Shown here one piece after another: positions 1,701-48,296 of a stretch of DNA of 64,000 nucleotides. The notes beneath the pieces were generated by a model. That model was not told where the DNA came from, ran no database searches, and saw nothing but the letters and a program-made list of their open reading frames with translations. The stretch's first letter is position 1. Every line of letters begins with the position of its first letter. The stretch is from a virus: IMG/VR virus record IMGVR_UViG_3300014039_000016, positions 72,829-136,828 of that record; one strand, 5' to 3'. The position numbers and the translations under genes were made by a program.

Positions 1701-2881
1701 TCGTTTCTCCTAATCACTAATTTTTCTGATGCTCTAGTCGCGGCTGTATATAGCCATCTTGCATGCTCTATCTTAATATTAGGAAAAGACTCCTCAATAA
1801 CTAAGACCTTATCCCATTCACTACCTTGTGCGCTATGACAAGTAATTGCATAAGCATAGGTGAAGTTTTTAGGAATTAAATCGCCATATATATACTTCAT
1901 TTTCCTAAGTTGATATTGAACGCGCCAATCTAAAAAAGGCTCTTCTTTAGTAAAAAAAGTTCTATCCATATCTAATAAAGGAAAAGTATCGCCGCCATCT
2001 GGTTTAAAATCGCCAATTATAATTGGAACTTCTCGTTCATCTGTTTGAATACGATTAGGAACTCTAATAAAGCTGGTGCATGGATTAATTAATGTACCTG
2101 TTGTACCATTAACAAGAGCATCACCATTTTCATTTGTATCGTCCCAATAATTTCGTTTACAAATAATTTTTTCTCCATTTTTTGGTAATCCTGAATAACC
2201 TAATAGACCTCTTACCTGGCTATTTATAGAATGTCGAGTTGCATTTGTTGCAACTAAAATTTGGTCCGCCCATGTTAGCATTCCAGTATTTAGCTCATTT
2301 TGTTTAACTATACAAACTTCATTACCTTTCATAAAAGAAATTGGTTCAAAATTACGAATTTTCATCGTAAGTCTAATAATCTCACTTTCTGCGGCTTGCC
2401 TCATAACCTCGTCTAAGAATACATCAGGATGCTTAAGGAGGTCATTTTCCTCGGTCTTGTCGATTTGAGGTAGCTGAAAAGGGTCTCCAAGGAAGATAAT
2501 AAAAATATGATGCGTCATAAGCAAATCTACCATCGACTTCGGAACCATAGACACTTCATCTACAACCACTATTGTATAGTCTAGCTCTTTTCTTATGCGT
2601 CTACCAAATCCGCCACTTGCCTTTGGATAATGCTCATATAATAAGTGATGAAGAGTACAAGCGCCAGGATTTCCTTTTTTTCTTAAGACTTCCGCGGCTT
2701 TACCCGTATAAGTAGCATAAGCTACCTTTTCTGGAGAAACATCTAACGCGCTAATAATAAACTTAACTAAGGTTGATTTTCCAGTTCCAGCATAGCCCGC
2801 AATAACTGCATATTTGTCTCCTTTTTTATGCTTATCTAAAACTACTTTTAATCCTTCCTCTTGCTTCCTCGTTAATATCAT
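1697..2881 (-). CDS. SF1 DNA helicase, Dda/RecD-like
   Basis: Walker A AGYAGTGKST, Walker B VVVDEVSMV, and a C-terminal UvrD_C_2-like region. Confidence 0.8.
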   Translation of the reverse strand: MILTRKQEEGLKVVLDKHKKGDKYAVIAGYAGTGKSTLVKFIISALDVSPEKVAYATYTGKAAEVLRKKGNPGACTLHHLLYEHYPKASGGFGRRIRKELDYTIVVVDEVSMVPKSMVDLLMTHHIFIIFLGDPFQLPQIDKTEENDLLKHPDVFLDEVMRQAAESEIIRLTMKIRNFEPISFMKGNEVCIVKQNELNTGMLTWADQILVATNATRHSINSQVRGLLGYSGLPKNGEKIICKRNYWDDTNENGDALVNGTTGTLINPCTSFIRVPNRIQTDEREVPIIIGDFKPDGGDTFPLLDMDRTFFTKEEPFLDWRVQYQLRKMKYIYGDLIPKNFTYAYAITCHSAQGSEWDKVLVIEESFPNIKIEHARWLYTAATRASEKLVIRRNE

Positions 2882-3690
2882 TATTCTTTCACCTCATAAA
2901 AAGTCATATCGCTATAATCAACCGTACCTGTATCTTCAATGCGGAAATCATCAATTTTTAATCTTAAATTATCTATAATATCATTATTAATAGCAAATTC
3001 TTTAGGATTTTTTAAAAATTCTTCATATTCTTCTTTAGATAAATCAATTTCTCCTTCATAATGTCCATATCTTAAAAACCCACTAACATAATCTGGAATG
3101 ATATTATCTATGAAAATTGTTTTATCTTCTTTCTTATGCCTCTCATTAGCCTTATCTATTGTCATTCTATTTAAAGAAGTAATTGCGCTAACACGACCAT
3201 CTTTGATTATTTTACTTAAATTTACAGGAGTGTAGTTACAAACATTTGCTGCTAAGTTAAGATGATACATATCATCACACCCTTCCATATTAGAATGGTC
3301 ATGACCATGAATATTTAAACACCAAGATAAACCCTTTATAGGTTCATGTGATAATAAAATCTTTTCAGCAATAAAAACAGGACCAGTATAAATTTCATTA
3401 AAATAATCTCGATATTTACCTAAACATGAATAATCATGGTTGCCGCAAATTAATATCCTATAATTTACATTTAGCTGTTCTAAATACTTTGGGTCTCCTA
3501 TATCTCCTAATAAAACTAAGGTATCATTCTTATGAACCAATTTATTGATTCTTTGAACCTGCTCTTCTGGAGTTATCCAATTCTTATCCATAAGTTTACA
3601 ATCACTATCATTGAAATGTGTATCAGATAAAATCCAAACAGAGCCAGTCATAGACCAATGCCTAAAAATATTATATAACATATTTATCAT
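2881..3690 (-). CDS. calcineurin-like metallophosphoesterase
   Basis: SDTHF...GDIGD...GNHD motifs. Confidence 0.8.
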   Translation of the reverse strand: MINMLYNIFRHWSMTGSVWILSDTHFNDSDCKLMDKNWITPEEQVQRINKLVHKNDTLVLLGDIGDPKYLEQLNVNYRILICGNHDYSCLGKYRDYFNEIYTGPVFIAEKILLSHEPIKGLSWCLNIHGHDHSNMEGCDDMYHLNLAANVCNYTPVNLSKIIKDGRVSAITSLNRMTIDKANERHKKEDKTIFIDNIIPDYVSGFLRYGHYEGEIDLSKEEYEEFLKNPKEFAINNDIIDNLRLKIDDFRIEDTGTVDYSDMTFYEVKE

Positions 3691-3693
3691 ATC

Positions 3694-4131
3694 TTACTCT
3701 CCTTTTTCATCCAATTCATCATATAACTCATTTCTAATGCGCATAAGAGTTTGACCTAATTTATTTTGTCCTACTCCTTTACATTTACCCCAATAAGTAT
3801 CTCCCCAAGTGTTACCTTCTACTATTGGTTCTAATCCAGTCTGTAAGAGTTTGATTTTAAGGTCTTCATTCTCTGTAAACTTCTGTTTACAAACATCATA
3901 CATTACCTGGTCTTTAATTTCTTCCCAATCATCTCTTAACTCAACTTTTCTGCCTAATCTTTTAGCCGCACCAGGTCTTAAACCAATAAACTTACGCCTC
4001 TCTTCATCTGTTTTACACTTAGCAGCCTGAAAAGCAGCTTCTGTTGAATTATATAATATGCCATTATAAAATATCGGAACTTCATAAAAATTACTTAAAA
4101 ATCCAAATTTACCATCAAATATATCTATCAT
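3694..4131 (-). CDS. NADAR (YbiA/DUF1768) domain protein
   Basis: FLSNF, EAAFQAAK and GDTYWG hallmark motifs over the full 145 aa. Confidence 0.85.
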   Translation of the reverse strand: MIDIFDGKFGFLSNFYEVPIFYNGILYNSTEAAFQAAKCKTDEERRKFIGLRPGAAKRLGRKVELRDDWEEIKDQVMYDVCKQKFTENEDLKIKLLQTGLEPIVEGNTWGDTYWGKCKGVGQNKLGQTLMRIRNELYDELDEKGE

Positions 4132-4169
4132 TTTAATATTATTCCTTTCTTATCTATATAAATATTATA

Positions 4170-4379
4170 TCATATTTTAAAATTAAAATCAATACAATAA
4201 TACTTTTTCTTTTCTATTTTTTTCTTTATACATTCCTTACATTTATTTTTTACTATTGGAGCAATAGAAGTACAAATATCCATTTCTGAATAATTGTACC
4301 CCTCTAACCAAAATAATCTATTACAATAAAAGCATCTCTTTGGAATAAAAGCAAATTTATCATAATGTGTTAAAGTCAT
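4170..4379 (-). CDS. small Cys-rich hypothetical protein
   Basis: CFYCN...CKEC pattern. Its 3' end overlaps a promoter motif, so the exact extent is uncertain. Confidence 0.3.
   Translation of the reverse strand: MTLTHYDKFAFIPKRCFYCNRLFWLEGYNYSEMDICTSIAPIVKNKCKECIKKKIEKKKYYCIDFNFKI
4174..4202 (-). promoter_or_regulatory. sigma-70-type promoter (conserved phage motif)
   Basis: attatatcata-N-aatcaa. Upstream of the NADAR gene. Confidence 0.6.
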
Positions 4380-4380
4380 T

Positions 4381-6276
4381 TTAGAACCCCCATGCTGTTA
4401 CAAAAGAAGCTTCTTTTATATCAATAATTTCATAATCAACCATAATTAACTGCGGATTTACCTCATAATTCCACTCATTAGAATTACATTTGCAAACTGC
4501 ATTAATTATATAATCATTACCATTATTAAAAGTATCAATTTCTTCTTCTGTACCCCCAAATTGTATAATATCAGCAACTGAATTAGTATATTTTAAAGTA
4601 TTTGATTTCATCACTTTAAAAGTATCTTTATTAACTTTAATATTCTTTATATATACAAGCGGTCTTTCAAAATCTTTACCTAGATAATCATTCATATTAG
4701 CCATTTCTAATATTTTCTGTCCTTCATTTTCAGAAGTCATATTCTTAGCATCCCATATATAATCAACATAATAAATAGGGTCTTCATTCATATCTTTAAG
4801 AATAGAATCTGTATCGTTTACAAAACTTAGTATCGGTTCTCCAAAAACTTCAGCCCCATAATCTGGGTCTAAACTACCACAATCTAAACCTAAACCGAAA
4901 GCACCTTGATGACCTTCCGCGTATCGAGCTCCCGCGGCAATACAAATATCTTTAAAATTCATATCTTTACCATATCCGCGTGCAGACCCCTCATAAGTCA
5001 CATATTGATTTTCTTTATCAACTACTTTTGTTAAAATACATACAGGTCTTTGATACTTTGCCATGAACTTATTCGCTATTAACCCAGCTATATTCCTATC
5101 AACCTCGCCAGGTTCTAATAAGAATAACAAAACTTTATGGTCTAACATATGATTTTTTTCAATTAAGCCCTCTAAATGTTCAAGTCCACTATCTTGAGCT
5201 TTTGTTTGTCTATTCTTTACATTTGTGCATGTTCGTATAGCTTGGTCAACAACTCTTTCCATTTCTCCTTGCGCGTGACCTCTTTTAGTTGAAAGAACCC
5301 TTTCAAACGCTCTATATTCTAGCATTGATTGGAATAATAATTCTTTCTCTTCTTGTGTTCCACTTCTAACCATTGCATTAACAAAAGGAGCAATAAAGAA
5401 AGCCGCGCCCATTGGAGTAATTTGTAAACCATGCTCTGAAGATGGCTTATAATCAGATTTATTTAAAGAAAAAGAATTTTTCTTTGCCATTTCATATATA
5501 AAAGGATTTTTAATATTTTCCTCTTTAAAACCTTCAAAGATGAGGTATTTCGTCTCAAGCGAGAGAATACTCATCATATCCGCCATGTTTCCAAGTGCAA
5601 CGAGGTCTAAGTAATTATTAGCAAAGTCTGTATCCTTTAATTTATCTAAAAAACGACAAAACTGCCATGTAACACCAACTCCAGAAAGTTCTTTATTAGG
5701 ATATGGAGTTAATTGATTATTAATAATAACTGTATTATGATACATTGCGGGATTAGATACTTCGTGATGGTCTAATATTAAAACTTCTGTATTATGATTA
5801 TCTAACTCTATATGAAAATTAATATCATTACTTCCTGCATCCGGCAATATAACTAAATCATATTTTTCTGCTTCTTCACAACAATCTGAAAGTCCATGCT
5901 GCTTTCCATTATGAAGAAAATATGATACATTATTTATAACAAAAGAAGGAAAAGAAGCATATAAATAATTTAATAAAAGCGCGCTTGAAGTATATCCATC
6001 ACAATCTGCATCAACTATTATTAATACTTTATGATTTTGCATAATATGTTTAATTAACATTGCCGCACCACGCTCCATTAAATCTAATCCAAATGCTTCT
6101 GGCGGATTGACGCATTCTTCTGTTGGGTTTATATATTCATATATATCTTCTTTTGAAATTCCTCTATTCAAAATAACTTGAAGTTCCGCAGAATTTGTTT
6201 TTACTGGATTATTATATAATTGAATGTGCATTATTTTACCCCACAAACAGCTATCTTTTTTGAGCATTGTGGACAA
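4381..6276 (-). CDS. DHH-family phosphoesterase, RecJ-like ssDNA exonuclease
   Basis: IVDADCDGYTSS (DHH motif II) and ILDHHEV (DHH motif). Confidence 0.75.
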   Translation of the reverse strand: MSTMLKKDSCLWGKIMHIQLYNNPVKTNSAELQVILNRGISKEDIYEYINPTEECVNPPEAFGLDLMERGAAMLIKHIMQNHKVLIIVDADCDGYTSSALLLNYLYASFPSFVINNVSYFLHNGKQHGLSDCCEEAEKYDLVILPDAGSNDINFHIELDNHNTEVLILDHHEVSNPAMYHNTVIINNQLTPYPNKELSGVGVTWQFCRFLDKLKDTDFANNYLDLVALGNMADMMSILSLETKYLIFEGFKEENIKNPFIYEMAKKNSFSLNKSDYKPSSEHGLQITPMGAAFFIAPFVNAMVRSGTQEEKELLFQSMLEYRAFERVLSTKRGHAQGEMERVVDQAIRTCTNVKNRQTKAQDSGLEHLEGLIEKNHMLDHKVLLFLLEPGEVDRNIAGLIANKFMAKYQRPVCILTKVVDKENQYVTYEGSARGYGKDMNFKDICIAAGARYAEGHQGAFGLGLDCGSLDPDYGAEVFGEPILSFVNDTDSILKDMNEDPIYYVDYIWDAKNMTSENEGQKILEMANMNDYLGKDFERPLVYIKNIKVNKDTFKVMKSNTLKYTNSVADIIQFGGTEEEIDTFNNGNDYIINAVCKCNSNEWNYEVNPQLIMVDYEIIDIKEASFVTAWGF

Positions 6277-7842: not shown

Positions 7843-8100
7843 CCTTTTTACCTTTATTTTCATAAAGGAGTAGACTATATCTTTACCATGGCTTTCGCTT
7901 TAGGTCCCTGTACTTCCATTTTAAAATAAATAAAATGTACTTCGCGCAACCGAATAGTCGTTGAACCTTCCTCTATTCGAGGCTCGGCTGCTGATTGCCC
8001 AATCTTTCTAATTTTCAAACATTCACACTTGATTTTATTTCATATCTATGTTGTAGTTTAGAAAGCTCTAAGGGTTTTCCAGCAATTCTCAGGGTGATAA

Positions 8101-8949
8101 TCACTTAGCATTTCTACTAAGGACGACTGTTTCCAAATTTTTATAAATTAAATATTTTCTTTCTAAATGAACTAATGGACAACTATCATATAATTTTTTC
8201 ATTATAAAGTATGGTTTTTGTATACCTCCACATCGAATGTAAAAAGTATTATTTTGAACATTGTTTTTTTGTTCTAATGGATTATCCAATTTTAATACTT
8301 CTTTTATCCATTCAAGAGTTTCTTTAGTTCCAACAAAACTTATACCAAATTCATTATTATTTCCTAAAAAAATAGAACCATCTCCATCAAAGTAACCTAA
8401 AATATAAGGTAGAAAAAATTCTTTTTCTATTTTTGGTGGCTCTAAAATTAAACTTTTTCTTGGAACAATTCCTTTATTTATTAAATCAGAAACCATTTCA
8501 TTACTATTAAAAATAATTTTACTCATAGGAGTGTTATTTGAAAAGCCTTCATTTTGAATATGGTCAACAATTTTTACATCACTATTCATAAATTCTTTAA
8601 GCTTTTCTAAATGTTTTTTATCTTTTCTGCTAATATTTACACCACAAAAATTTCCTGCATTGCAATCTGTTCTTCTTTGATACACATATCCATCTGCAGC
8701 AATAAACCCTAGCCAATAAGCCTTTTCTTCGGTATCAATATTTTGAAATTTTCGATAATCAGCTTTATATTTATGATTATCGTTTCTATAAGTTATTTGA
8801 TTTTCTTTTAACACTCTTGAAATTACATTTTTTGAAACTTGATATTTGGCTCCAATATTAACCATACTTTGTTTTTGATTTATATATAAATTAATAATGT
8901 TCTTCTGTTGTTCATCTGTAAAATTAATTTTTCTCATAAATACCTCCAA
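8101..8949 (-). CDS. LAGLIDADG homing endonuclease (double-motif), intron-encoded
   Basis: YWLGFIAADGYV and ILGYFDGDGSI motifs with an N-terminal HTH. Confidence 0.85.
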   Translation of the reverse strand: MEVFMRKINFTDEQQKNIINLYINQKQSMVNIGAKYQVSKNVISRVLKENQITYRNDNHKYKADYRKFQNIDTEEKAYWLGFIAADGYVYQRRTDCNAGNFCGVNISRKDKKHLEKLKEFMNSDVKIVDHIQNEGFSNNTPMSKIIFNSNEMVSDLINKGIVPRKSLILEPPKIEKEFFLPYILGYFDGDGSIFLGNNNEFGISFVGTKETLEWIKEVLKLDNPLEQKNNVQNNTFYIRCGGIQKPYFIMKKLYDSCPLVHLERKYLIYKNLETVVLSRNAK

Positions 8950-8954
8950 TTAGA

Positions 8955-8970
8955 TGTGTGTGTGTGTGTG
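8955..8970. repeat. (TG)8 dinucleotide microsatellite inside the helicase intron, in the loop of an inverted repeat
   Basis: tgtgtgtgtgtgtgtg, flanked by ATTAGATGT (8949-8957) and ACATCTAAT (8981-8989). Confidence 0.8.
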
Positions 8971-9027
8971 TATTATTCCTACATCTAATATGAAAAATAT
9001 TTAAGCTATATTATAAAAATTTGTCCA

Positions 9028-10293
9028 ATCTGCAATAGATTTTGCTCCACGCAATAAGTTTTGGTCATATTCTTTTGCATCTCGATAATCTCCATTAAGC
9101 TGTGTTGCGGACATAATAAAAATACCATACTGATTACATAAATCCTTTAATCTAATTGAAATCATAAAAAGAATATTATCTTCTCTTAAGCGCACTCCAC
9201 CGCTTCTTTTTGTTATCTCTTCAAGTATCTTCATCGAGGTATGTAGATAATCTAAAAAGCAGTACTTCGCCTCATGCTCCCTAATATTTCTTTTAATTGT
9301 ATTTTCTATATCTTGTAAAGAAAAGTCTGGAAGATATTCAAAATAAATTTTACTTTGTTTTAAAAGCTGTGCTGCTTTTTGAACTCTTTCCCATTCTCCT
9401 TTTAAATACTTACCATCTAATAAATGTTCTTCATTAACTCCTGATAAAAAAGCAATCATCATAGTCTGAATTTCATCAAGAGGTTGTTCTGTAGCTATAT
9501 ATATAGTAGGTTCTGATTTTCCTGTACTAATCCATTTATTCTCATGTAAATCATACATTTGAGAGCATCCGATATAGCAAGCATCCGCAATCATAGAACG
9601 AGTTTTACCAACTCCTGTTGCGGCAGACCTTAAATAAAATTTCTTTAATCTTGCTCCTCTTACAACCGTATTTACATATTTTCCAAAAAGAGGATATCCT
9701 AACTCCGGATTGGCTTTTAATGATTCTAGAAGTTCACTGACGCCCTCTCCTACCTGAATTCCGCCATCTGCATCGTCATCAACATACTTCATTCTAATTT
9801 GTAAAATTTTGTCATCTATAATATTTGCAATCTGTTCGAGGGATGTATTATCTAGCCAATCCTCTTGCTTTTGTTTCTTTTTTATATCTAAGACATTATC
9901 TGGGTCATACAAATCGGTTAAATCCATACCAGTAATAGTATTAAGTTGTTTTAATAATGTCATTTTCTTCATTCTATTATAATAATAATCAAAAGTTGAT
10001 ATATTAGATTTTTCCGCGCAAGTAAGGATATATTTTGCACCATCATTAGCTTTATAAATTGCTAATTTTTTTGGTCTTTGATTCAAATAATCTTCAATAG
10101 TTTCTATTGTTATATTTTTTGCTCCTAATTGATGTAAATTATAAATACTTCCAAAAACAATTTTTTGAAAATCATTTGCAAAATCTTCTTCTAAAAAGAA
10201 ATATTTATCTGTCGCATCTAATAAATTAGGATTATTATATATATTTCCTATAACTTGTACTAAACAAGCTATGTCACAATAATTACTTTTCAT
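9028..10293 (-). CDS. replicative DNA helicase (DnaB-like), exon 1
   Basis: RecA-fold motifs GVGKTRSMIADACYIG (Walker A) and ...SATQLNGDYRDAK. As drawn in the track, the ORF reads through into the intron to a stop at 9001. Confidence 0.7.
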
Positions 10294-18555: not shown

Positions 18556-18743
18556 TTTGAGAAAAACTATGTGCGAAAGTCTAAGCGGCAGCCGGTGAAA
18601 ACCGGCGCCGTAGGTCTTTCTTTGACTAGCTTTCTTTCTCCCTACTGAGAAAGAAAGTAGAAGATATTGATACACTTGCCCTTAAGCAGGTATTATTATA
18701 TGAAAATTATAGTATATTGATTATCCATTTTTGTCCAAAAATT

Positions 18744-21077
18744 TTAAATTTTTGTGACTTTAAGAATCTTGTTGTCTTTAATCATAATATTCCCCAAAGA
18801 TATTTTACCTAAAAGTGGAATTTCGGTTGCCGCAATACATAATGAATTTTTATTACCACATAATAAAATATTATCTTCATCACTTACCATCAAAGCTCCA
18901 GCAACTTCTTCTTTTGAACAAATAGTTCCTCTACCGCCTCGTCCTTGAAGAGGAAACTCATTGAGTTCAACTTTTTTACCAAGACCGCTTGTAGTGAATA
19001 TAGCTAAATTATCCGTATTTTTATGAATAGGTAATGCCGCAACTACTTCATCATTTTCATCTAATTTCATACCTTTAACACCCAGAGTTACTCTACCAAC
19101 AGGAGTGATATCTTTTGTTTCAAACTTAATACTATTTCCATTTTTTGAGATTAAGATAATAGGTTCTTCATCCTGGAATATCACATCTACAACTTCATCA
19201 TCATCTCTTACTCTTAGCGCTGCGATTCCAGTATTCTTTCGTGCAGACATATACTCTTCAAGATAAGTCTTTTTAATCATACCTTTTTTAGTAATAAAAA
19301 TTGCAAATTTTGGAGTGGTCTTTCTATGTAAAGAAGTTACTGCAATAATCTTTTCATCATTGTCCAATTTTACTAAGTCAGATATTAGACAGCCTTTTGT
19401 TGCGTTTGTTCCTACTGGAATATTATCAACAAGAGTTCTATACATCTTTCCGCAATTAGTGAAGAACATCATTGTATCTATAGTATTGGTTTTTACGACA
19501 TCTAAAAGTGCGCTATCTTCAGACTTTACTCCTTTTGTATTTCTTCTTTGAACTCTGAAAGAAGACTGCGGAACTCTTTTTATTAATCCAGTCTTTGTTG
19601 TTACTACAACAACATTCTCTGGAATTACTTCTGCAATTTCCTTTTCTTCTTTTGGGACTTCAATTTGAGCAAGTTCTGTTCTTCTTTCATCTCCAAACTT
19701 TTTAACAATATCGGAGAGTCTTTCCCACAGCTTTTCAACTTGTACTTCTCTAAATTTTAAAAGATGTTCTAAATCTTCTATTGTTCTTAATAATTCCTCT
19801 TTTTCTTTCTCAAGTTCAACTTTTTCAAGTCTTGCTAATTTAGATAGCTTCATATCTAGGATAGCTTTTGCTTGAGCTTCAGAAAAACTATAAGTATCTA
19901 TCAAACGCTGCTTGGCGTTACTTGCACTGTCAGATTTTTTAATTAAATTGATAATGTTATCAATATCTTCAAGAGCCTTAATAAGTCCATCAACTATATG
20001 CAATCTTTCTTTTGCCTTAGTTAAATCATATTGTGCTTCTTTCTTTAAACAACTAATATTATGTTCAACATAAACCTCGATTGCGTCTTTAAGATTCATT
20101 TCTGTTGGTGTCTTTCCTATAAGAGCAACTTGATTATATGAAAAAGAGCTTTGTAAAGATGTCTTATTAAATAATTGCGCAACAACTTTTTCAGGCAATG
20201 TATTTTTTTCAACTTTAATAACTAACTTTACGCCTTTAGAATCAGTATCATTAGAAATTGCAGTGATTCCATTTATTTTACCTTCATCCGCAGCATTACC
20301 AATTTCTGTAATAAGACTTTCCACTCTTGTACCATATGGAATCTCATAAAAGATAATTTTTTGTTTGTCAATCTTATATCTTCCACGAATCTTTACACTT
20401 CCATGCCCAGTTTTCATAATTGCGGGAATATCATTTTTATTAATAATAATACCTCCGGTTGGAAAATCTGGACCTGGTAGCATTGGTTCTTTACCATCTA
20501 AATAATCTCTTATTGCATTTGCAACTTCTTTTAAATTATGTGGTGCCCAAGAACATCCCATTGCCCAACCAATTCCTTCATTTGGATTGCATAACAAATT
20601 CGGAAAAATTGCTGGTAAAGTAACTGGCTCCTTTTCAGTTTCATCGTAGTTTGGGATAAAATCTACAGATTCTTTTTTAATTCCATTTAAGAGACCTACT
20701 TCACTTAATTTAGTGAGTCTTGCCTCTGTATAACGCATTGCCGCGGGTCCATCTCCAAGAATATTACCAAAGTTACCATGTCCATCAAATAAAGGATATC
20801 TCATAACCCAATCCTGGGAAAGTCTAACCATTGCTCCATAGATAGAGCTATCTCCATGAGGATGGAAACGACCCATTGTATCTCCAACAATTCTTGCAGA
20901 TTTTACATGAGGCTTATTAGCTGTTCTTCCTTCAATAAAGGCATCCCAGATAATTCTTTTAGCAACAGGTTTTAATCCGCTTTTTGCGTCTGGAAGACTT
21001 CTATCTGTATTAACTGCAATACCATATTCAAGACTATTTCTTTGTATCTCATCTTCTATTGTGTTATTATTCCACAT
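18744..21077 (-). CDS. type II DNA topoisomerase subunit A (GyrA/ParC- or T4 gp52-like)
   Basis: N-terminal GLKPV...R motifs, a HPHGD region and a GyrA-like breakage-reunion domain. Confidence 0.85.
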   Translation of the reverse strand: MWNNNTIEDEIQRNSLEYGIAVNTDRSLPDAKSGLKPVAKRIIWDAFIEGRTANKPHVKSARIVGDTMGRFHPHGDSSIYGAMVRLSQDWVMRYPLFDGHGNFGNILGDGPAAMRYTEARLTKLSEVGLLNGIKKESVDFIPNYDETEKEPVTLPAIFPNLLCNPNEGIGWAMGCSWAPHNLKEVANAIRDYLDGKEPMLPGPDFPTGGIIINKNDIPAIMKTGHGSVKIRGRYKIDKQKIIFYEIPYGTRVESLITEIGNAADEGKINGITAISNDTDSKGVKLVIKVEKNTLPEKVVAQLFNKTSLQSSFSYNQVALIGKTPTEMNLKDAIEVYVEHNISCLKKEAQYDLTKAKERLHIVDGLIKALEDIDNIINLIKKSDSASNAKQRLIDTYSFSEAQAKAILDMKLSKLARLEKVELEKEKEELLRTIEDLEHLLKFREVQVEKLWERLSDIVKKFGDERRTELAQIEVPKEEKEIAEVIPENVVVVTTKTGLIKRVPQSSFRVQRRNTKGVKSEDSALLDVVKTNTIDTMMFFTNCGKMYRTLVDNIPVGTNATKGCLISDLVKLDNDEKIIAVTSLHRKTTPKFAIFITKKGMIKKTYLEEYMSARKNTGIAALRVRDDDEVVDVIFQDEEPIILISKNGNSIKFETKDITPVGRVTLGVKGMKLDENDEVVAALPIHKNTDNLAIFTTSGLGKKVELNEFPLQGRGGRGTICSKEEVAGALMVSDEDNILLCGNKNSLCIAATEIPLLGKISLGNIMIKDNKILKVTKI

Positions 21078-25210: not shown

Positions 25211-25515
25211 TATATTTTACCCTCTTTATTTAACTTAGCCTTAAATTCTCCGTAAGGAAGAATTCTGTTTCCTTCTTCATCAAAATTGCCTTCATTAAAT
25301 TCCAATAGAAAATCACTATAATCATACTTAGTCCACGGTTTACATTCTACATGATTATGCTCTTCTTTGCAATTAAGACACCATAATCGTTTTAAATGTC
25401 CGGCTTCTCTTTCCTGCCCTCTCTTGCGCGGAATGTCAAAACCTCTTTTCCCACATTTTGTACAATAAAATTCACTTGGGTCTGCTAATTGCGTTCTTCT
25501 TGCCATATATAACAC
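25210..25515 (-). CDS. hypothetical zinc-ribbon protein
   Basis: CTKCG...CLNC pattern. Confidence 0.35.
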   Translation of the reverse strand: MLYMARRTQLADPSEFYCTKCGKRGFDIPRKRGQEREAGHLKRLWCLNCKEEHNHVECKPWTKYDYSDFLLEFNEGNFDEEGNRILPYGEFKAKLNKEGKI

Positions 25516-25536
25516 TTCCTTTCTTTTATATATATA

Positions 25537-25565
25537 TTATAACATTTTTTTTAATAAAAATCAAA
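25537..25565 (-). promoter_or_regulatory. sigma-70-type promoter (variant -10 TGTTATAAT)
   Basis: attataacat...atcaaa. Confidence 0.5.
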
Positions 25566-25602
25566 AAAAATAAGGCGTACTACTAATACAGTAGTACGCC
25601 TT
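25560..25602 (-). terminator. rho-independent terminator after PhoH exon 2
   Basis: 13-bp stem AAGGCGTACTACT/AGTAGTACGCCTT followed by TTTTTTTT. Confidence 0.7.
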
Positions 25603-25606
25603 ATAA

Positions 25607-26029
25607 TTATAAATTTTCTGCAATTTTTGCAATTTTACTTCTATAAATATTTTTAAGAGTAACTTCACTATAAAAATTTTGTCCTCTAAATACTTTAGAA
25701 ACTCTGCGGAGACCATTATGCTCACCCGCATACATATCTAAATCAACTTGGGCATTATCATCTCCATCAAGAATTACTTGACAATCATCACCAACTCTTT
25801 GAAGAGCAAGTTTCATTAAGTCTGAATCCATATTTTGTGCTTCTGTGATATAAATAATAGAATTAGAACCTGAAGTATCATATCCTCTAATATCAGCTAA
25901 AGGTAAAAGAATAAGCTGTTCATGCAATATCATATCATTTACAGTATCCTCTCCAAGTTTTGCCTTTAGAAAGTTTCCGATTTGGCTATCTAAAAGCTTC
26001 TCCGTCCTAGTTCCAGGGTAAACAAATAA
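25607..26029 (-). CDS. PhoH-like ATPase, exon 2 (C-terminal part)
   Basis: YPGTRTEKL (the LPGDLKEK equivalent), ITEAQN (the LDEAQN equivalent) and VILDGDDNAQVDL (the VVTGDxTQIDL equivalent). The start boundary near 26029 follows a G on the intron side. Inferred. Confidence 0.6.
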   Translation of the reverse strand, partial: LFVYPGTRTEKLLDSQIGNFLKAKLGEDTVNDMILHEQLILLPLADIRGYDTSGSNSIIYITEAQNMDSDLMKLALQRVGDDCQVILDGDDNAQVDLDMYAGEHNGLRRVSKVFRGQNFYSEVTLKNIYRSKIAKIAENL

Positions 26030-27340
26030 CTTTATAATTTTCATTATAAACCTGACTATATCTTATTTTAAACTATTTTTTAAAGAACAATATTTATTAT
26101 ATTTTCTTTGTAAATGTCTTGGACAATTTTCATATAAAATATTTAAAATTTTTAAAACTTGTAATCGACCTCTCCATTGAGTGTGCCAAGCAGATGTAAA
26201 AAAATTTTTATTTGTTTTTTCATTATCTGCTAAAAGATTGATTAAGGTTTGGAAATCTTGAACCTCTGTTTCATGATACGCAGTATAGCTTAAAGTAACA
26301 TCAGTACTAAAATCTTTACTGTAGCTCAATCCTCCATCCCCATCGAATAGACCTAATGCATAAGCACCCCAATATTTTTTAGGAATCTTTTGATATGGAA
26401 TATGGTCTATCATATAAGTTTTATTAGGAATAATATTATATTTTGCTAAATCATTATAGATTTGTTCATCAGTAAATTCTACAGAGCAACAAGTACTATT
26501 TGGTCGAATATCATAAATAATTTTTCCGTCTAACGCTAAATCTTCTTGAAATTTTTCTAAAATTTCTTTATCTCTTTCTTGTAATTGTAACCTAATTCTA
26601 CCTGTAGTTCTATAATGGTCAACGCTTCCATCTGTGAATAAAAAACCTAGCCAATAAGCTTTTTCTGGTGAATCAATGACTGAAAAGTAATCGCTTTTAA
26701 TTCTACGATTAATTCGATTAGTATTTTTAATTTGTAAGCCAAGTTCTTTCAGGCGGTGCTTAGTTGTTTCTTCATCTAAGTTACAATAATTAGCAACCTC
26801 TTTCAAGAAAGCACCTTCATCAATCATTTTTTTAACTTCCATAATTTGCTCATTAGTTAATTGTTTTTTCTTTCTACCTCCTCTAATAGGAATTTGATTT
26901 TCTTCAAGCAACTTTGTAATTTGCCTTCTATTAAAAGAGGGATAATCTCTTAATAATTGAGCTATTGATTTACCTTGTTGGTATTCTTGTATAATATTTT
27001 TTGTTTCCATAAAGAAACCTCCTTGTAATATTTTTACTATTCATATAAATATTAAAAATAAAAGAGGTAACTTTTCCTGTTTTGTCCAAAATTTTTCAGT
27101 TTAAAATCCATGCACTTCGAGATATTAAAATCCCTACTCTACTAACTTCCATATAAAAAATATGTGTTTTCGATAGTCGATGAACCTTCCTCTATTCGAG
27201 GCTCGGCTGCTGATTGTCCAATCTTTCTAATTTTTAAACATTCACACTTAGTCGTATTTCATACTTATGTTGTAGTTTAGAAAGCTCTAAGGAGGTTCCA
27301 GCAGTTCACATGGTTTTACTTGAGCCTTACCCTATTTTTA
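26030..27340 (-). mobile_element. group I intron (putative) in the PhoH-like gene, carrying a LAGLIDADG homing-endonuclease ORF
   Basis: PhoH is split between its Walker A region and its LPGD...DEAQN region. Segment 27170-27300 is near-identical to 7960-8095 of the helicase intron. Boundaries are approximate. Confidence 0.55.
26063..27010 (-). CDS. LAGLIDADG homing endonuclease (double-motif), intron-encoded
   Basis: YWLGFLFTDGSV and ALGLFDGDGGL motifs. Confidence 0.85.
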   Translation of the reverse strand: METKNIIQEYQQGKSIAQLLRDYPSFNRRQITKLLEENQIPIRGGRKKKQLTNEQIMEVKKMIDEGAFLKEVANYCNLDEETTKHRLKELGLQIKNTNRINRRIKSDYFSVIDSPEKAYWLGFLFTDGSVDHYRTTGRIRLQLQERDKEILEKFQEDLALDGKIIYDIRPNSTCCSVEFTDEQIYNDLAKYNIIPNKTYMIDHIPYQKIPKKYWGAYALGLFDGDGGLSYSKDFSTDVTLSYTAYHETEVQDFQTLINLLADNEKTNKNFFTSAWHTQWRGRLQVLKILNILYENCPRHLQRKYNKYCSLKNSLK

Positions 27341-28208
27341 ACCCAAGCTTAGCCGCGCCTCTAGCTGCGACTGTATTACAAAAAATAATGATTTTTTCTT
27401 TTTTGCCAGTTTCTAATTGATTCATCATATAAGCGAAAGCAAGGTAAGATTTTCCACTTCCCGCAGGACCTCTTAAGACAATCATCTGGTCATGAACTAA
27501 AGAGTCTAATGCAAGTAGCTGATATGCGTCATTATTGTAAGGACTTATCTTACCAAAGAATTTAGAGTCAATCTTAGGATATATAACTTTTTTATAACCT
27601 TCTTCTGTCCATTTATATTTATCAACAATACAGCTATTATTAACTACAATCAAATATTCATTAGTTAATAGACCATATTTATTATTTTTAGAATTAACTT
27701 CACAAGAATAGAAATTTGCTAATTCTTCATCATCTAAGTTTATAATTTTATAGCCAGTATAATCATCTTCTTCAACATCTGGACTGACTGTACTTAAACC
27801 TGCGGCTACCGCAAGCATTTTGCATGCAACATCTCTTGTTATAAATAAAGTTTCATCATTTTCTTTTTGTAAACTAAGAGCTGCATTAATAATATCACTA
27901 TCATTATTTGTGGCATTTGCTCCAGTTTTAATAACTTTATATTGGCTACTTTTGTTATCTAATAAATGAAGTAATTTTCTAGCTTTATATTTAATTTCAT
28001 TATCTTTTGATGCAGAGGTTTTTATATTTTCTAATTCCACGAGTGTAACATCCGCGATATAGAAAAAATCTTCAAAAGCTTTTTCTTGTAGTTCTAATAA
28101 AGCACAAGTATCATAAAATTTATTCATCTTCGTCCTCCTCATATTCTTCCAAATCTTGAGAAGCTTGGAACCCAATAGCAACGCCATTTCCTCCACAATC
28201 TTCTTCAA
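27340..28208 (-). CDS. PhoH-like ATPase, exon 1 (PIN-like N-terminal region plus Walker A)
   Basis: VLRGPAGSGKSYLAFAYMMNQL matches the PhoH P-loop. As drawn in the track, the ORF ends at 27327 inside the intron. Confidence 0.6.
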
Positions 28209-28417
28209 TATCTTTTTTTACATTATATGTTTCTTTTGCAATTACAGTACATATATGTTGACTTAGCTGTTGTAAAATTGTAATTACGCAATCTACGATT
28301 GGAATAATCAAAAGAACAAACAGACTTCCTTTTATAAAATTTTTCATTAGAGAAGCCCTCCTGGTTTATTTTATATATAATATGAAAAAAGAAATAGAAA
28401 AATTATACATTTTTGAC

Positions 28418-41767: not shown

Positions 41768-43099
41768 TTATTTCTTCTTTTTAGTTAAACATATTGCACA
41801 TAAAATCCAAAAAATACAGCATAAAGATACTACAACACATATAGTCCACCAGCCTAAAAGGCTTTCATCTCCAGTTTGTACGCTAACCGTCGAGATATCT
41901 GCGGCAATTTCTGGTGTCTTACTCGGCTTTATATCTTTAGACTCCGCAATTTCTTCATCTGCCTCTAACTCTGGTGCTTTTGTTTCTTTTGTCATTTCAG
42001 TAGAGCTAGTTGTAGTTTTCTGTACAGTAGTTGTTTCTAATTCTGTGGTTGTCTCTTCATTCTTAAAACTTTCCGTTTCATTTTGCTTAATTGTTTCTGT
42101 TGTTTGTTCAGAAGAACTCTCTGTTGTATTTTGTTCAGAAGATGATTCAACTGTTGTAGTTTCAGAATTTGATTTTGTAAAACCTCTAAAAGCTATTTTA
42201 TGAATTTCGCTACTATGCGTTAAAGTATTACAAATTACTGAGCCAATAAGGTTTCCTGCATTTATATTTACAGTAGCCATTGGCGCAAGAATAGTTCCTG
42301 AGAATATACAATTTTGATTAATATTTCCGCAATAAGCACCAAAATTCCAAAGAATATTGCCACTCCATGACTCCCAGCCTTCATTTTGTATTTTACTTTC
42401 AATATTTATATTTTCTTCATTATTAGTAATAACATTAATAACTACAATTTTATCTTTAGCTATTGATTTAATGTATTCTCCCTGGTCAATATCATGTGAT
42501 AAGTCTTCTGCATTAATATTAAAGACTATAATGTTATTATTCACAGGTGTAAATTTACCATTCCAATAATTATTTTTCATAATTTTTGAAGAGTTTACTT
42601 GACTATATAAATCATTCGCATAAACTGTTAAATCAGCAAAAAGCTTTTCAAAATCTAAAAATTCTCCATCGCTTTTTTGTACGACAGATAAAAGATTATT
42701 TGTAGTTCCAAAAACTTGATTATCTACGAACCACTGATTTCCACGCTTTTCTATATTATAAGTATCACTAGTAACTAATCTATTGGTTACTCCATTCTGA
42801 AAGACATATAATCCATTAATTAAATTTTGAATATAAGATGTATTGTATTCACCTGGAACTCGTGAATTTTCAATACTACAATAACTCCATAAGTTATGGA
42901 TTAAGACATTACCTTCTACATGCCCAATACCTTGTTTATATTCTTTCGTAACAACAGCATAATCAAGCGTAAAATCTTCTCCTGATGCTTTGGTTGTGTG
43001 TGGCAGTAGTATAAAAGTTGCTGTAATTATTAACATAATTGCTAATAAAAATGAGATTATTTTCTTGTTATTTTTCATTTCCTTCCCTCCATAAAACAA
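41768..43099 (-). CDS. cell-surface protein with signal peptide, Ser/Thr/Glu-rich linker and C-terminal membrane anchor
   Basis: N-terminal signal/TM, a TTVESSSEQNTTESSSEQTTE linker and a C-terminal hydrophobic segment followed by a KKKK tail. Confidence 0.4.
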   Translation of the reverse strand: MFYGGKEMKNNKKIISFLLAIMLIITATFILLPHTTKASGEDFTLDYAVVTKEYKQGIGHVEGNVLIHNLWSYCSIENSRVPGEYNTSYIQNLINGLYVFQNGVTNRLVTSDTYNIEKRGNQWFVDNQVFGTTNNLLSVVQKSDGEFLDFEKLFADLTVYANDLYSQVNSSKIMKNNYWNGKFTPVNNNIIVFNINAEDLSHDIDQGEYIKSIAKDKIVVINVITNNEENINIESKIQNEGWESWSGNILWNFGAYCGNINQNCIFSGTILAPMATVNINAGNLIGSVICNTLTHSSEIHKIAFRGFTKSNSETTTVESSSEQNTTESSSEQTTETIKQNETESFKNEETTTELETTTVQKTTTSSTEMTKETKAPELEADEEIAESKDIKPSKTPEIAADISTVSVQTGDESLLGWWTICVVVSLCCIFWILCAICLTKKKK

Positions 43100-43128: not shown

Positions 43129-44052
43129 TTAGTTCATTAATAAGATATAATAAAAATATCCTTCTGCGTCTTGCGCGATTCCTACTCCAATATAATTGTA
43201 ATTATTACTTAACATTAAAGCATTATGTGCTTTAGAATTTTTCCAGCCTTCAACCGCTTCCGCACAGCTAGAAAAATATCTTGCATAGTTTTCTCCAAAA
43301 TTACCAGATAGATTGTATAACTCAAAAATGCTACTTGCCGATTCAAAATTAGGTCTATAATGATGCATTGCGCCATCTGAAGTATATCCAATCATATTCC
43401 AATCTGAATAAGCTGATTCGGTAGCTCTATGTTCTGCGGCAAGTGATAATACATTATTATATTCTAAAGGATATAAGCTATTTGAAATACGATAATCATT
43501 AATTATTGATACAAGTTCTTGTATTTGATTATCATATTTCACAATATTATTCGCAGATATTTGTTTTAAGTCATTATCGGTTAGGATTTTTGGTTGTGGA
43601 ATTTCATTTGTATTACTATAATTAACTCCATTACAAATAATATTAGTTATAGTAGGTTGCGGAATTTCTGCTTGAGTCTCCTCCATCTCGGTAGAAGCTT
43701 CTATAACCTGAGTTTCCGCGTCAACATTTTTAGAATAAGTTTCTGTTTCTTCAATTTCTGTCTCTGTTTCTTCTTCTATTGTTGATTCTAATATAATATT
43801 TTCAACAGTTTCTTCTTCTATACTTCTATTTGTTTCGGTCTCGAAAATCATATTTCGTGCAGCCGCGATTTGTCCATTCTGCTGTATATCTACTATTGTG
43901 TTAGCACTTCTACCTTCCTTGAAAGCACAAATACCAGCGATTAAGAAGACTCCCGCAGTTAAAGAAACTGTTGAAATTTTTAATATCTTTCTATTCATTA
44001 ACAGTACCTCCTCTTTTGAAGAAGGACATACAAATGAAAAGTGAAGATGCAA
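43129..44052 (-). CDS. CAP/SCP (PR-1/YkwD-like) domain protein with N-terminal TM
   Basis: C-terminal ...GWKNSKAHNALMLSNNYNYIGVGIA matches the CAP domain. Confidence 0.55.
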   Translation of the reverse strand: MHLHFSFVCPSSKEEVLLMNRKILKISTVSLTAGVFLIAGICAFKEGRSANTIVDIQQNGQIAAARNMIFETETNRSIEEETVENIILESTIEEETETEIEETETYSKNVDAETQVIEASTEMEETQAEIPQPTITNIICNGVNYSNTNEIPQPKILTDNDLKQISANNIVKYDNQIQELVSIINDYRISNSLYPLEYNNVLSLAAEHRATESAYSDWNMIGYTSDGAMHHYRPNFESASSIFELYNLSGNFGENYARYFSSCAEAVEGWKNSKAHNALMLSNNYNYIGVGIAQDAEGYFYYILLMN

Positions 44053-46260: not shown

Positions 46261-47028
46261 TTATATTTTATTCCATTCTTCTTCAGAATAAGAATTAATA
46301 TCTTTTTTTCGACTTGGAAGATTTTCTGATATACACCATTTAGTGATAGCTTTATCAGAAACACCATATTGTTCTCCTATCTTTGTAAATGGAGTAGTTC
46401 TAATAAGTTTTTTCAATTCTTCTCTTGATGGTCTTTTACATACTCTCTTTAATTTTGAAGAACATTCAAAACATAATCCAGAATTAGAATTTTTAGATAT
46501 TTCTTTATTACATTCTTTACAATAATACTTTATTTTTTTAGTATTATCAGAAATAATCCCCTTAGAAGAGATATGATTTCTATTTAATTTATTCTTTCCA
46601 TTTGTAGTATCTAACTGCTGATTGCAATTAGGACAAACCCAACGAAGATTTTCTAATCTATCATCATGGTTACAGCCATTTATATGGTCAAGAATTAAAG
46701 TTAATTCTTTTCCTTGCCATATAGGTTCTTGTCCGCAAATAGAACAAACATATGGAGTATATTCTCCTTTAACATACCATCTTCTTAAAGTTGCTTGACT
46801 AGCTGTTGAATCTTTAATAAAGATATTTCCCTCATTTCTCTCTATTCCTTTTTTAATAGCAAAATGAGAAATATCTATATTATATTTTTCTAATCTTGAT
46901 TTTACTGTGTTATTATTACTACCACTATGAGTAGCATATCCAAGTTTATCAATTACTTCTTTCATAGAAGAACTTGACTCTACTATTTGTTGAAGTTCTT
47001 CTTTTGAAAAATTATCAATTATTGCCAT
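46261..47028 (-). CDS. HNH homing endonuclease with C-terminal HTH module (paralogue family)
   Basis: CSICGQEPIWQGKELTLILDHINGCNHDDRLENLRWVCPNCN. The C-terminal 55 aa are shared with the ORFs at 58041 and 59549. Confidence 0.8.
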   Translation of the reverse strand: MAIIDNFSKEELQQIVESSSSMKEVIDKLGYATHSGSNNNTVKSRLEKYNIDISHFAIKKGIERNEGNIFIKDSTASQATLRRWYVKGEYTPYVCSICGQEPIWQGKELTLILDHINGCNHDDRLENLRWVCPNCNQQLDTTNGKNKLNRNHISSKGIISDNTKKIKYYCKECNKEISKNSNSGLCFECSSKLKRVCKRPSREELKKLIRTTPFTKIGEQYGVSDKAITKWCISENLPSRKKDINSYSEEEWNKI

Positions 47029-47299: not shown

Positions 47300-47383
47300 A
47301 AATAACAAGACATTTTTCTGCTGTTCTATCTATTTGAAAGAAAGTAATTATTTGCTGTAAATGTCTTTCTTTATTATATAAAT

Positions 47384-47412
47384 ATTATATCATAAAATTT
47401 TATAAAAATCAA
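47384..47412 (-). promoter_or_regulatory. sigma-70-type promoter driving the tRNA-Pro/His unit
   Basis: TTGATT-17-TgaTATAAT. Confidence 0.6.
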
Positions 47413-48296
47413 TTAAAGATACTCATATGTCCGCATAATGTACATTCACCTATGCGGCAATCCTGTGGGCATTCACTAACACGATAATTTTTTATTGGTA
47501 TCATGTTATGACAAGGAATAGCTATGTTCTTTTCAATATAAACATAATCATTATCTCGTGAGCATCTCATTCCTTTTGTATTGATAGCAATGCCATCTCT
47601 ACCAAACTGTTTTAAGACTTCATTACGAGTTGGATAAGTTTTTTCAGTACCGTCATCAAAGATTACTAAATATCTATCTCCAACTTTATAATTTCTAATT
47701 TTGTCTCCGCGTTTAGAAGTATCTAATAAGTCTTCTTCGCACATATAGTGACAGTTAATTTCTTCACATTTTTTTATAAAATCTTCAACCTGTTCATTTC
47801 CATTAGTAATAACTGTTTCACATTTAAAATTGTTACCTAAAGCTTCATTTAATACTTTAGCTTTCTCCATGAAAGTATCTAAATCCGCATATTCATAATG
47901 AAAACTTGCAGTCATTGAGAGAACTTTATTATGAGATGTAGCAACTTCATTAAGTACTAAAAAGTATTCCGCAGGCTTTGAAAGATTAGTTGTAATATTA
48001 ATCTTAGCAATAGGATAACTTTCATATAACTTATCTAATAAAATTCTTAAATCTTTAAATAAAGAAATCTCTCCACCAATTAAGTCTATCTTAACTTTTT
48101 TCTTATTTATCGTATAAAGTTCTTCCGCAATTCTAATAATATCATCTGCCGCGTCTAAACAAGTTGCAAAATCATAAATGAGATTACTTTCAGTTTGAAT
48201 AAAATCTCTACGAATACAATAGCTACAATGATAATTGCAAATATCTGTTAAACGCCATTTTATAACACACATTGTATCTAAATCAACAATCTTCAT
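47409..48296 (-). CDS. radical SAM enzyme with C-terminal Cys-rich (SPASM/twitch-like) region
   Basis: CNYHCSYC (Cx3Cx2C) near the N-terminus and C-terminal CPQDCRIGECTLCGH. Confidence 0.7.
   Translation of the reverse strand: MKIVDLDTMCVIKWRLTDICNYHCSYCIRRDFIQTESNLIYDFATCLDAADDIIRIAEELYTINKKKVKIDLIGGEISLFKDLRILLDKLYESYPIAKINITTNLSKPAEYFLVLNEVATSHNKVLSMTASFHYEYADLDTFMEKAKVLNEALGNNFKCETVITNGNEQVEDFIKKCEEINCHYMCEEDLLDTSKRGDKIRNYKVGDRYLVIFDDGTEKTYPTRNEVLKQFGRDGIAINTKGMRCSRDNDYVYIEKNIAIPCHNMIPIKNYRVSECPQDCRIGECTLCGHMSIFN

Follow-up and report, generated by a model that had tools for sequence, protein, structure and literature searches.

The window analysed here is a stretch of 64,000 nucleotides (nt) of viral DNA, positions 72,829 to 136,828 of the IMG/VR record IMGVR_UViG_3300014039_000016, and the subject of this study is its PhoH2 gene, which encodes a PIN domain followed by a PhoH domain. 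The window is AT-rich, with a G+C content of 24-39% (300-nt windows, 24-30 kb), contains 22 tRNA genes and looks like part of a large phage genome. A megablast comparison of 21.6 kb of it with the GenBank phages returned no match, so that it is without a close sequenced relative in that collection. Three open reading frames (ORFs) follow one another on the minus strand: a 5' ORF with the motif GPAGSGKSYLAFA, a 948-nt ORF (27010..26063) and a 3' ORF with YPGTRTEKL, ITEAQN and ILDGDDNAQVDL. The outer two are the halves of a single PIN+PhoH gene, interrupted by an insert of 1318 nt (27340..26023) that houses the middle one. The features discussed below are collected in Table 1; the loci used for comparison are designated L001-L009, which come from IMG/VR contigs, and L025-L030.

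Table 1. Positions of the split PhoH2 gene, of its intron and of the related helicase intron in the window
Feature	Position	Strand	Remarks
PhoH2 exon 1	28127..27341	minus	PIN domain and Walker A GPAGSGKS; ends with AAKLG and the first base of a Phe codon
PhoH2 exon 2	26022..25607	minus	FYPGTRTEKL, ITEAQN, ILDGDDNAQ; stop codon 25609..25607
Group I intron, 1318 nt, subgroup IA-like (P7.1 and P7.2)	26023..27340	minus	starts after U27341, ends with G26023
Internal guide sequence GGGUAAGGCUCAAG, 14 nt	27319..27332	minus	pairs with both exon ends (P1, P10)
P1	guide 27325..27319 (GCUCAAG) with exon 1 27347..27341 (CUUGGGU)	minus	U27341·G27325 at the splice site
P10	guide 27332..27326 (GGGUAAG) with exon 2 26022..26016 (UUUACCC)	minus	
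Core, 5' half: P3 5' strand, P4, P5, P5a, P5b, P5c, P6, P7 5' strand	27173..27313	minus	common to this and the helicase intron; P3, P4, P5, P5a-c and P6 with compensatory changes
P7	27178..27173 with 26059..26054 (pair GACUAU/AUAGUC)	minus	
P7.1; P7.2; P3 3' strand	27164..27150; 27134..27119; 27112..27108	minus	compensatory changes in all three
P8: 5' strand UUUUAAACU; partner AGUUUAAAA	27106..27098; 26074..26066	minus	9 base pairs, 3 of them with compensatory changes
LAGLIDADG homing endonuclease gene, 315 amino acids	26063..27010	minus	in loop L8; AAGGAGG ribosome-binding site upstream
Core, 3' part: J8/7 and P7 3' strand AAGAUAUAGUC, P9 with GAAA loop, terminal G	26023..26064	minus	92-98% identical in the seven homologues
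P9 hairpin	26050..26031	minus	compensatory changes
Terminator-like hairpin, then T run	25570..25604	minus	directly 3' of the PhoH stop codon; consensus scan only
Related group I intron in a DnaB-like helicase gene	7843..9027	minus	junction SIAD/KIDVG; RF00028 61.2 bits, E 2.7e-15
Parts of the helicase intron: LAGLIDADG ORF; P2 hairpin; core	8937..8101; 8124..8107; 8095..7851	minus	

Joined to each other, the two exons encode a protein of 400 amino acids that matches the Pfam PhoH profile (PF02562) as a single stretch, from profile position 8 to 198 of 205, with 104.5 bits for a cut-off of 27; taken separately, exon 1 accounts for positions 8-67 and exon 2 for positions 82-198. The PIN domain is recognised by PF13638 (PIN_4, 35.9 bits, cut-off 21.9), it precedes the PhoH domain with its Walker A motif as in the PhoH2 architecture, and phrog_2765 matches the joined protein end to end (E 1e-71). 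A tblastn search found PIN-PhoH genes without interruption in Alicyclobacillus, Geobacillus, Bacillus and Enterococcus phages, and the joined protein aligned to them as a single piece. The insertion point is the conserved motif KLG-F/Y-PG, which lies between the Walker A and Walker B motifs. The exact boundaries fall between 27341 and 27340 and between 26023 and 26022, and the ligated exons are predicted to read GCTTGGGT/TTTACCC on the minus strand. A first-pass annotation of this DNA had already described a PhoH-like ATPase gene split by an intron that encodes a LAGLIDADG endonuclease, with GPAGSGKSYLAFA in exon 1 and the three motifs of the 3' ORF in exon 2. The split gene, the placement of the motifs, the endonuclease ORF at 26063-27010 and the border at 27340 were all recovered, but exon 2 begins at 26022 instead of 26029, and 28208 had to be abandoned as the beginning of exon 1. 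The start of PhoH2 is likely to be the ATG at 28127 and not the TTG at 28208, since a GAGGAGG Shine-Dalgarno sequence sits 6 nt 5' of this ATG, which overlaps the stop codon of the preceding ORF, and since the homologues align from residue 1. PhoH proteins usually carry an Asp before the Glu of their Walker B motif (DEAQN). The corresponding motif of the window protein is ITEAQN (25827-25844, minus strand), and the PhoH proteins of L003-L009 have ISEAQN or IMESQN.

The most direct demonstration of the interruption is provided by close relatives. The same PhoH2 protein is encoded without interruption in L001 and L002, with 95% amino acid identity. Both loci are collinear with the window from 32164 to 21821 at about 91% nucleotide identity, and exactly 27340..26023 is missing from them. 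Their protein junction reads AAKLG/FYPGT, as predicted; at the nucleotide level GCAGCTAAATTAGGTT is followed immediately by TTTATCCTGGAAC (the L001 junction is also given as GCAGCTAAATTAGGTT and TTTATCCTGGAACTAG). A search of IMG/VR with the endonuclease protein led to the seven contigs L003-L009. Each of them has a homologous intron, with its endonuclease, in a PhoH2 gene, and the point of interruption is always the same codon (residue 263/264). The nucleotide identity of these introns is 79-88% in the 5' part and 92-98% in the 3' part, whereas their PhoH exons share just 36-40% and 50-64% amino acid identity with those of the window. That relatives whose PhoH proteins are 95% identical have or lack the intron at precisely one site, and that divergent PhoH genes, far less conserved than the intron itself, contain it as well, argues strongly that this element is mobile.

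Between the window and L001, 60 PhoH codons differ synonymously and 21 non-synonymously, an excess which suggests that the host gene is still under selection. The differences from the intron-less alleles are mildly denser at the junction, with 5-7 per 30 nt for an average of about 2, and include synonymous ones (AAG CTT GGG T in the window, AAA TTA GGT T in the intron-less alleles). This clustering is suggestive, not conclusive, and fits either co-conversion of the flanking exon or a requirement for pairing in P1. A separate property of the intron-bearing contigs is their use of TAG. In L003 and L005-L009, in-frame TAG codons occupy positions where homologues have Gln (for example EAqN, RLqLq and TqWRGRLqV), both in the PhoH exons and in the intron ORFs (about 1800-4400 per locus), with 3-8 such codons per endonuclease frame and 1-8 per PhoH frame. 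These six phages appear to read TAG as Gln and the window and L004 to follow the standard code; as phages of both kinds carry the intron, the intron and endonuclease family would span different genetic codes.

The RNA of the insert contains the classical elements of a group I intron, with AAUCAGCAGCC as Q, GUUCAUCGACUAUCG as R and AAGAUAUAGUCAGG as S. A scan of all 1318 nt for complementarity to the exon ends gave the guide site as the unique best, with 8+9 = 17 contiguous pairs for 10 at the next best site, which places the observed pairing beyond chance. P10 covaries with the Tyr codon of exon 2 in 4+4 sequences, the guide being GGGUAAG where this codon is UAC and GGAUAAG where it is UAU. 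In P1, a G:C pair is replaced by A:U in L003, where exon position -2 has changed from G to A and its partner in the guide from C to U, and all eight sequences maintain the pairing. A terminal G precedes exon 2 in 8/8 introns; in the window this last base of the intron is G26023.

The structure was evaluated on an alignment of the eight introns (window and L003-L009) from which the ORF had been deleted, for the helices P1, P10, P3, P4, P5, P5a, P5b, P5c, P6, P7, P7.1, P7.2, P8 and P9. Across the eight introns 98.8% of the cells pair, and 30 of the 83 pairs show compensatory changes on both sides, compared with 4-5 in controls where the partner strand was slid. In 500 shuffles the observed values were never attained, whether for paired cells, for compensatory pairs or for the covariation score. 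All the nested helices, P8, P10 and a 7-base-pair P3 among them, were also predicted by RNAalifold, which was blind to the drawn structure. Compensatory changes are present in P3, P4, P5, P6, P8 and P9, and the molecule displays the P3/P7 pseudoknot together with the P, Q, R and S elements. Two other versions of P3 were considered and rejected. The Rfam alignment takes AACACA, after P7, as the 3' strand, but the partner that covaries is CAUGG at 27112..27108, downstream of P7.1 and P7.2; an extension of P3 by AAAA/UUUU fails likewise, the U run being part of the covarying P8. In the classification of Michel and Westhof, subgroup IA is defined by P7.1 and P7.2 between P7 and the 3' strand of P3. 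Both helices occur, with compensatory changes, in 8/8 introns and place the PhoH intron in subgroup IA, at a level that does not separate IA1 from IA2.

Several points weigh against this structural assignment. P7 is identical in all eight sequences, so that covariation is neutral on it, and a P2 helix was not identified in the PhoH intron. The structure was partly first drawn from the window sequence, which inflates the percentage of cells paired but not the count of compensatory pairs, and the eight introns include near-duplicates (L006/L007 and L005/L008), so that there are fewer independent changes than cells counted. The comparison with Rfam is also only partly favourable: with the Infernal group I models, a 361-nt sub-window matches RF00028 over model positions 53-154, the 5' half of the core, at 22.6 bits (E 9e-4), short of the gathering score of 50 bits. 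Neither this intron nor the related one in the helicase gene came up when the whole window was scanned at gathering thresholds, and a scan of 25400-28400 at E<=10 gave only chance matches of the snoRNA type. The low score and the missed detection are attributed to the filters of the search and to the ORF of about 1 kb in L8, which separates the core into halves. Since the group I matches arose only in short sub-windows with laxer filters, the early negative scans are not evidence of absence.

The ORF carried by the intron matches the Pfam family LAGLIDADG_3 (PF14528, 30.8 bits, cut-off 22.5) and phrog_4645, annotated as endonuclease (E 2.9e-52). Its product has a helix-turn-helix-like region at the N-terminus, followed by two LAGLIDADG motifs, AYWLGFLFTDGSV and AYALGLFDGDGGL, each with a terminal Asp; the Asp residues of such motifs are catalytic. 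Intact and full-length homologues (56-72% amino acid identity) are found in the seven other PhoH introns, which makes 8/8 intact ORFs, and both motifs are kept in all 8 when TAG is read as Gln. The gene is bracketed by P8, and its last codons, just 5' of the stop, form the 3' strand of this helix. The closest annotated relatives, with about 30% identity, are LAGLIDADG enzymes encoded within the recA introns of staphylococcal phages. A sequence search of the PDB with the endonuclease found no LAGLIDADG structure; its sole match, a weak one, linked the N-terminal region (residues 14-94) with a chain that the PDB lists as an uncharacterized protein. The junction of GCAGCTAAATTAGGTT and TTTATCCTGGAAC in L001/L002 is a candidate substrate for the enzyme.

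A short motif accompanies these endonuclease genes. On the minus strand UUGGACAAA occurs at 27081-27089, 9020-9028 and 18730-18738; the first two copies precede the endonuclease genes of the PhoH intron and of the helicase intron, and the third is intergenic, after the gene 21077..18744, with a TATAAT-like box downstream of it. The GGACAA core of the motif is unchanged in 8/8 PhoH introns. The sequence TTGGACAAA, found before each endonuclease gene, has three exact copies on the minus strand and is not enriched when one mismatch is allowed (30 matches for 25 expected). A convincing -10 element was not found in the PhoH intron. The motif UUGGACAAA could be the -35 element of a promoter or the 5' end of an endonuclease cassette.

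The window contains a second intron of this kind, in a DnaB-like helicase gene, whose junction is fixed by the uninterrupted helicases of L025, L026, L027 and L029. Its core is contiguous and exceeds the gathering score of RF00028 (61.2 for 50 bits). The first-pass annotation had recognised that the two introns share a segment of roughly 130 nt, placed 5' of the ORF in one and 3' of it in the other. Both observations were borne out: 142 nt (27314..27173 and 8095..7954, repeat family D10) are 89% identical and span the 5' strand of P3, P4-P6 and the 5' strand of P7, upstream of the endonuclease gene in the PhoH intron and downstream of it in the helicase intron. To account for this arrangement, either one intron core with the gene inserted in different peripheral loops or a shuffling of introns had been proposed. 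The former is the better explanation, as P8 covaries and flanks the ORF of the PhoH intron and the helicase ORF lies upstream of a covarying P2. A recent shuffle of the whole element is contradicted by the two endonucleases of the window, which belong to the same PHROG family but are just 31% identical. The evidence supports one old ribozyme family for the PhoH and helicase introns, with related endonuclease genes in different loops.

The 5' end of the helicase intron is less clear-cut than its core. Its P2 hairpin covaries in a second copy, in L030. The P1 proposed by Rfam (CUUAGU/GCUAAG) was rejected as being this P2: L030 has UCUAGU/ACUAGA instead, ending in U:A, and the pairing does not depend on the sequence of the exons. 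No conventional guide sequence was found by scans of the helicase intron, including the region next to the 5' splice site. The best P1 is tentatively a short one of 5 base pairs, formed by GAU/UG with CAGUC (8129..8125) directly 5' of P2, and analogous pairings fit the exon ends at two other insertion sites of the helicase-type intron. Such a P1, immediately 5' of P2, would put the ORF of this intron in loop L1, a placement that is equally tentative.

No further copy of the family was detected in the window by an nhmmer profile of the core combined with the Q, R and S strings, which found only the two known ones. Beyond the window, the shared segment has blastn matches in 233 phage records; it belongs to a widespread family of phage introns and is the part under the strongest constraint. 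Three side observations concern the helicase region. The ATPase gene upstream of the helicase (homologues of window 11276-12313 in L025, L026, L027 and L029) carries introns of the same family at at least two different sites. In L027 it has two insertions, each with a LAGLIDADG ORF, and the window copy is uninterrupted. A (CA)10 run (about 8953-8972, minus strand) lies in a hairpin loop a short distance 5' of the ribosome-binding site that serves the endonuclease gene of the helicase intron.

Taken together, these results give a probability of about 0.92 to the interpretation that the insert in PhoH2 is a mobile intron of group I, phage IA type, with a LAGLIDADG endonuclease gene in L8. The following course of events would be expected from sequence comparison for splicing catalysis, endonuclease activity and choice of target. 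After transcription the intron RNA would fold, and its guide sequence would pair with 7 nt on either side, at the end of exon 1 and at the start of exon 2. In the first, guanosine-initiated step, an external guanosine would attack after U27341, and the freed exon 1 would then attack after the terminal G26023, so that the exons are joined into the 400-amino-acid protein with its AAKLGFYPGT sequence. The endonuclease, produced from its own ribosome-binding site, would cut intron-less PhoH alleles in co-infecting phages, and repair off the intron-bearing copy would insert the intron and some flanking exon into the cut gene, a process known as homing.

A first alternative, which is very improbable, is that the group I intron has decayed and lost both splicing and mobility, and that the gene has become a pseudogene or is rescued otherwise. 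The absence of an identified P2 and the sub-threshold Rfam score could be read in this way. All the helices of the window copy are nevertheless intact, its P1 and P10 match the exons of the window itself, which differ synonymously from the intron-less alleles, its endonuclease ORF is intact with the Asp of both catalytic motifs, and the PhoH exons show the 60:21 excess of synonymous codon differences. Scarcely any weight can be given to the proposal that PhoH consists of two independently translated ORFs, split by a free-standing endonuclease gene with no RNA splicing. The ORF lists do contain frames of 293 and 145 amino acids, each with a possible start codon, and the insert has no Rfam match at the gathering score. 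Against this stand the frame of exon 1, which meets a stop after 4 codons of the insert, the ATG of the 145-amino-acid ORF (26044), which falls within the P9 hairpin and lacks a Shine-Dalgarno sequence, the complete covarying fold with a guide that pairs with both exon ends, and the precise lack of the insert in close relatives; the profile alignment of the joined product as one stretch (8-198) also speaks for a split gene. The identification of the insert as an intein or as a group II intron can practically be dismissed: LAGLIDADG domains occur in inteins and an intein in a phage PhoH gene has been reported (PMC3322345), but stop codons in the exon frame and the ORF's own start and ribosome-binding site are incompatible with read-through translation, no group II family was matched in the Rfam scans of the whole window and of 25400-28400, the insert lacks the domain V/VI structure of a group II intron, and the P, Q, R and S elements and the terminal G of a group I intron are present.

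Phages are a classic home of group I introns that encode homing endonucleases. In phage T4, the td, nrdB and nrdD (sunY) introns belong to group IA2 and encode I-TevI, I-TevII and I-TevIII. The PhoH intron resembles them in its P7.1 and P7.2, in the interruption of a conserved motif of a gene of the nucleotide-metabolism type, in the position of the ORF in a peripheral loop, in the end of this ORF, which runs into a core helix, and in a presence that varies among related phages. It differs by its enzyme, which is of the LAGLIDADG and not of the GIY-YIG or HNH type, by its PhoH2 host gene, by the location of the ORF in L8 and by the lack of a recognised P2. The closest annotated endonucleases, aligned over their full length, are the LAGLIDADG ("DOD") enzymes such as I-MsaII of the recA/rec introns of staphylococcal Twort-like phages (Kayvirus, Silviavirus). 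These introns were compared by their endonuclease only, and they occupy a different host gene in a different group of phages.

The core has a wider distribution. A similar P4-P6/P7 region, 71-76% identical over about 170-205 nt, is found in introns of the Bacillus phages SP-15 (in the major capsid gene), AR9 and PBS1, of the Listeria phage LPJP1 and of the Vibrio phage ICP1, in host genes other than PhoH. This likeness, which concerns the core alone, points to one broad family of phage introns. Nearer still are the helicase intron of the window and the ATPase introns of L025-L029, which have the same core, 84-89% identical to that of the PhoH intron and 84-95% to that of the helicase intron. 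The helicase intron differs from the PhoH intron by an endonuclease gene 5' of P2, probably in L1, and by the sequences of P1, P3, P7.1, P7.2 and P8. At the protein level, PhoH and a ribonucleotide reductase gene are reported to be interrupted by inteins in the Campylobacter phage vB_CcoM-IBB_35 (PMC3322345); its PhoH intein is likewise a selfish self-splicing element in a phage PhoH gene, but one that acts on the protein and not on the RNA.

Other features of the window are unrelated to the split gene. A c-di-GMP-I riboswitch aptamer (RF01051, 44045-44118, minus strand) was identified with 61.6 bits for a gathering score of 35. This second-messenger riboswitch in a phage genome lies at the start of an ORF (44052..43129) with a hydrophobic segment at its N-terminus, and the product of the next ORF (43099..41768) has hydrophobic segments at both ends and a C-terminal region rich in Thr, Ser and Glu. 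About 1.8 kb upstream of the PhoH gene, an ORF of 227 amino acids (29955-30638, minus strand) with the HNH-like motif DHFNHNKRDNSLENLEWVT is probably a free-standing homing endonuclease gene. A repeat of about 50 nt is present in at least 13 copies over 1455-63000 (for example 25516-25569, 30639-30687 and 47364-47417). Its minus-strand sequence, TTGATTTTTATAAAA...TATGATATAATAT, comprises a -35 box and an extended -10 box; these repeats, all oriented with the genes, are probably the phage's own promoters of the sigma-70 type. Among the tRNA genes, three paralogous stretches (46265-46839, 58111-58586 and 59553-59774) with 70-86% identity may represent small ORFs in several copies or additional mobile endonuclease genes.

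In the portions of the full-text literature retrieved with phoH, group I intron and phage as terms, no group I intron in phoH was described, and within this literature phoH is a new host gene for phage group I introns. The understanding of group I introns as such is unchanged by this finding. Its practical consequence is that, as long as the intron goes unrecognised, PhoH2 would be annotated as two fragments and an orphan endonuclease, an error that would recur in at least seven other viral contigs. The alignment of eight introns and the sister introns with their gene in another loop constitute a natural series for the study of the entry of endonucleases into ribozyme loops, and the same series is useful for that of the co-evolution of the guide sequence with synonymous sites of the exons. 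A further and speculative idea, which is rather unlikely at present, is that the endonuclease gene moves as a cassette of its own between the loops L8 and L1 of a single ribozyme family, which would have colonised several genes of the replication type in one group of phages, namely PhoH2, the DnaB helicase and, at two sites, the ATPase gene adjacent to the helicase, and would have crossed a boundary between genetic codes. In that case, the spread of the ribozyme could be unrestricted, and that of each endonuclease would be limited to phages with its own code.

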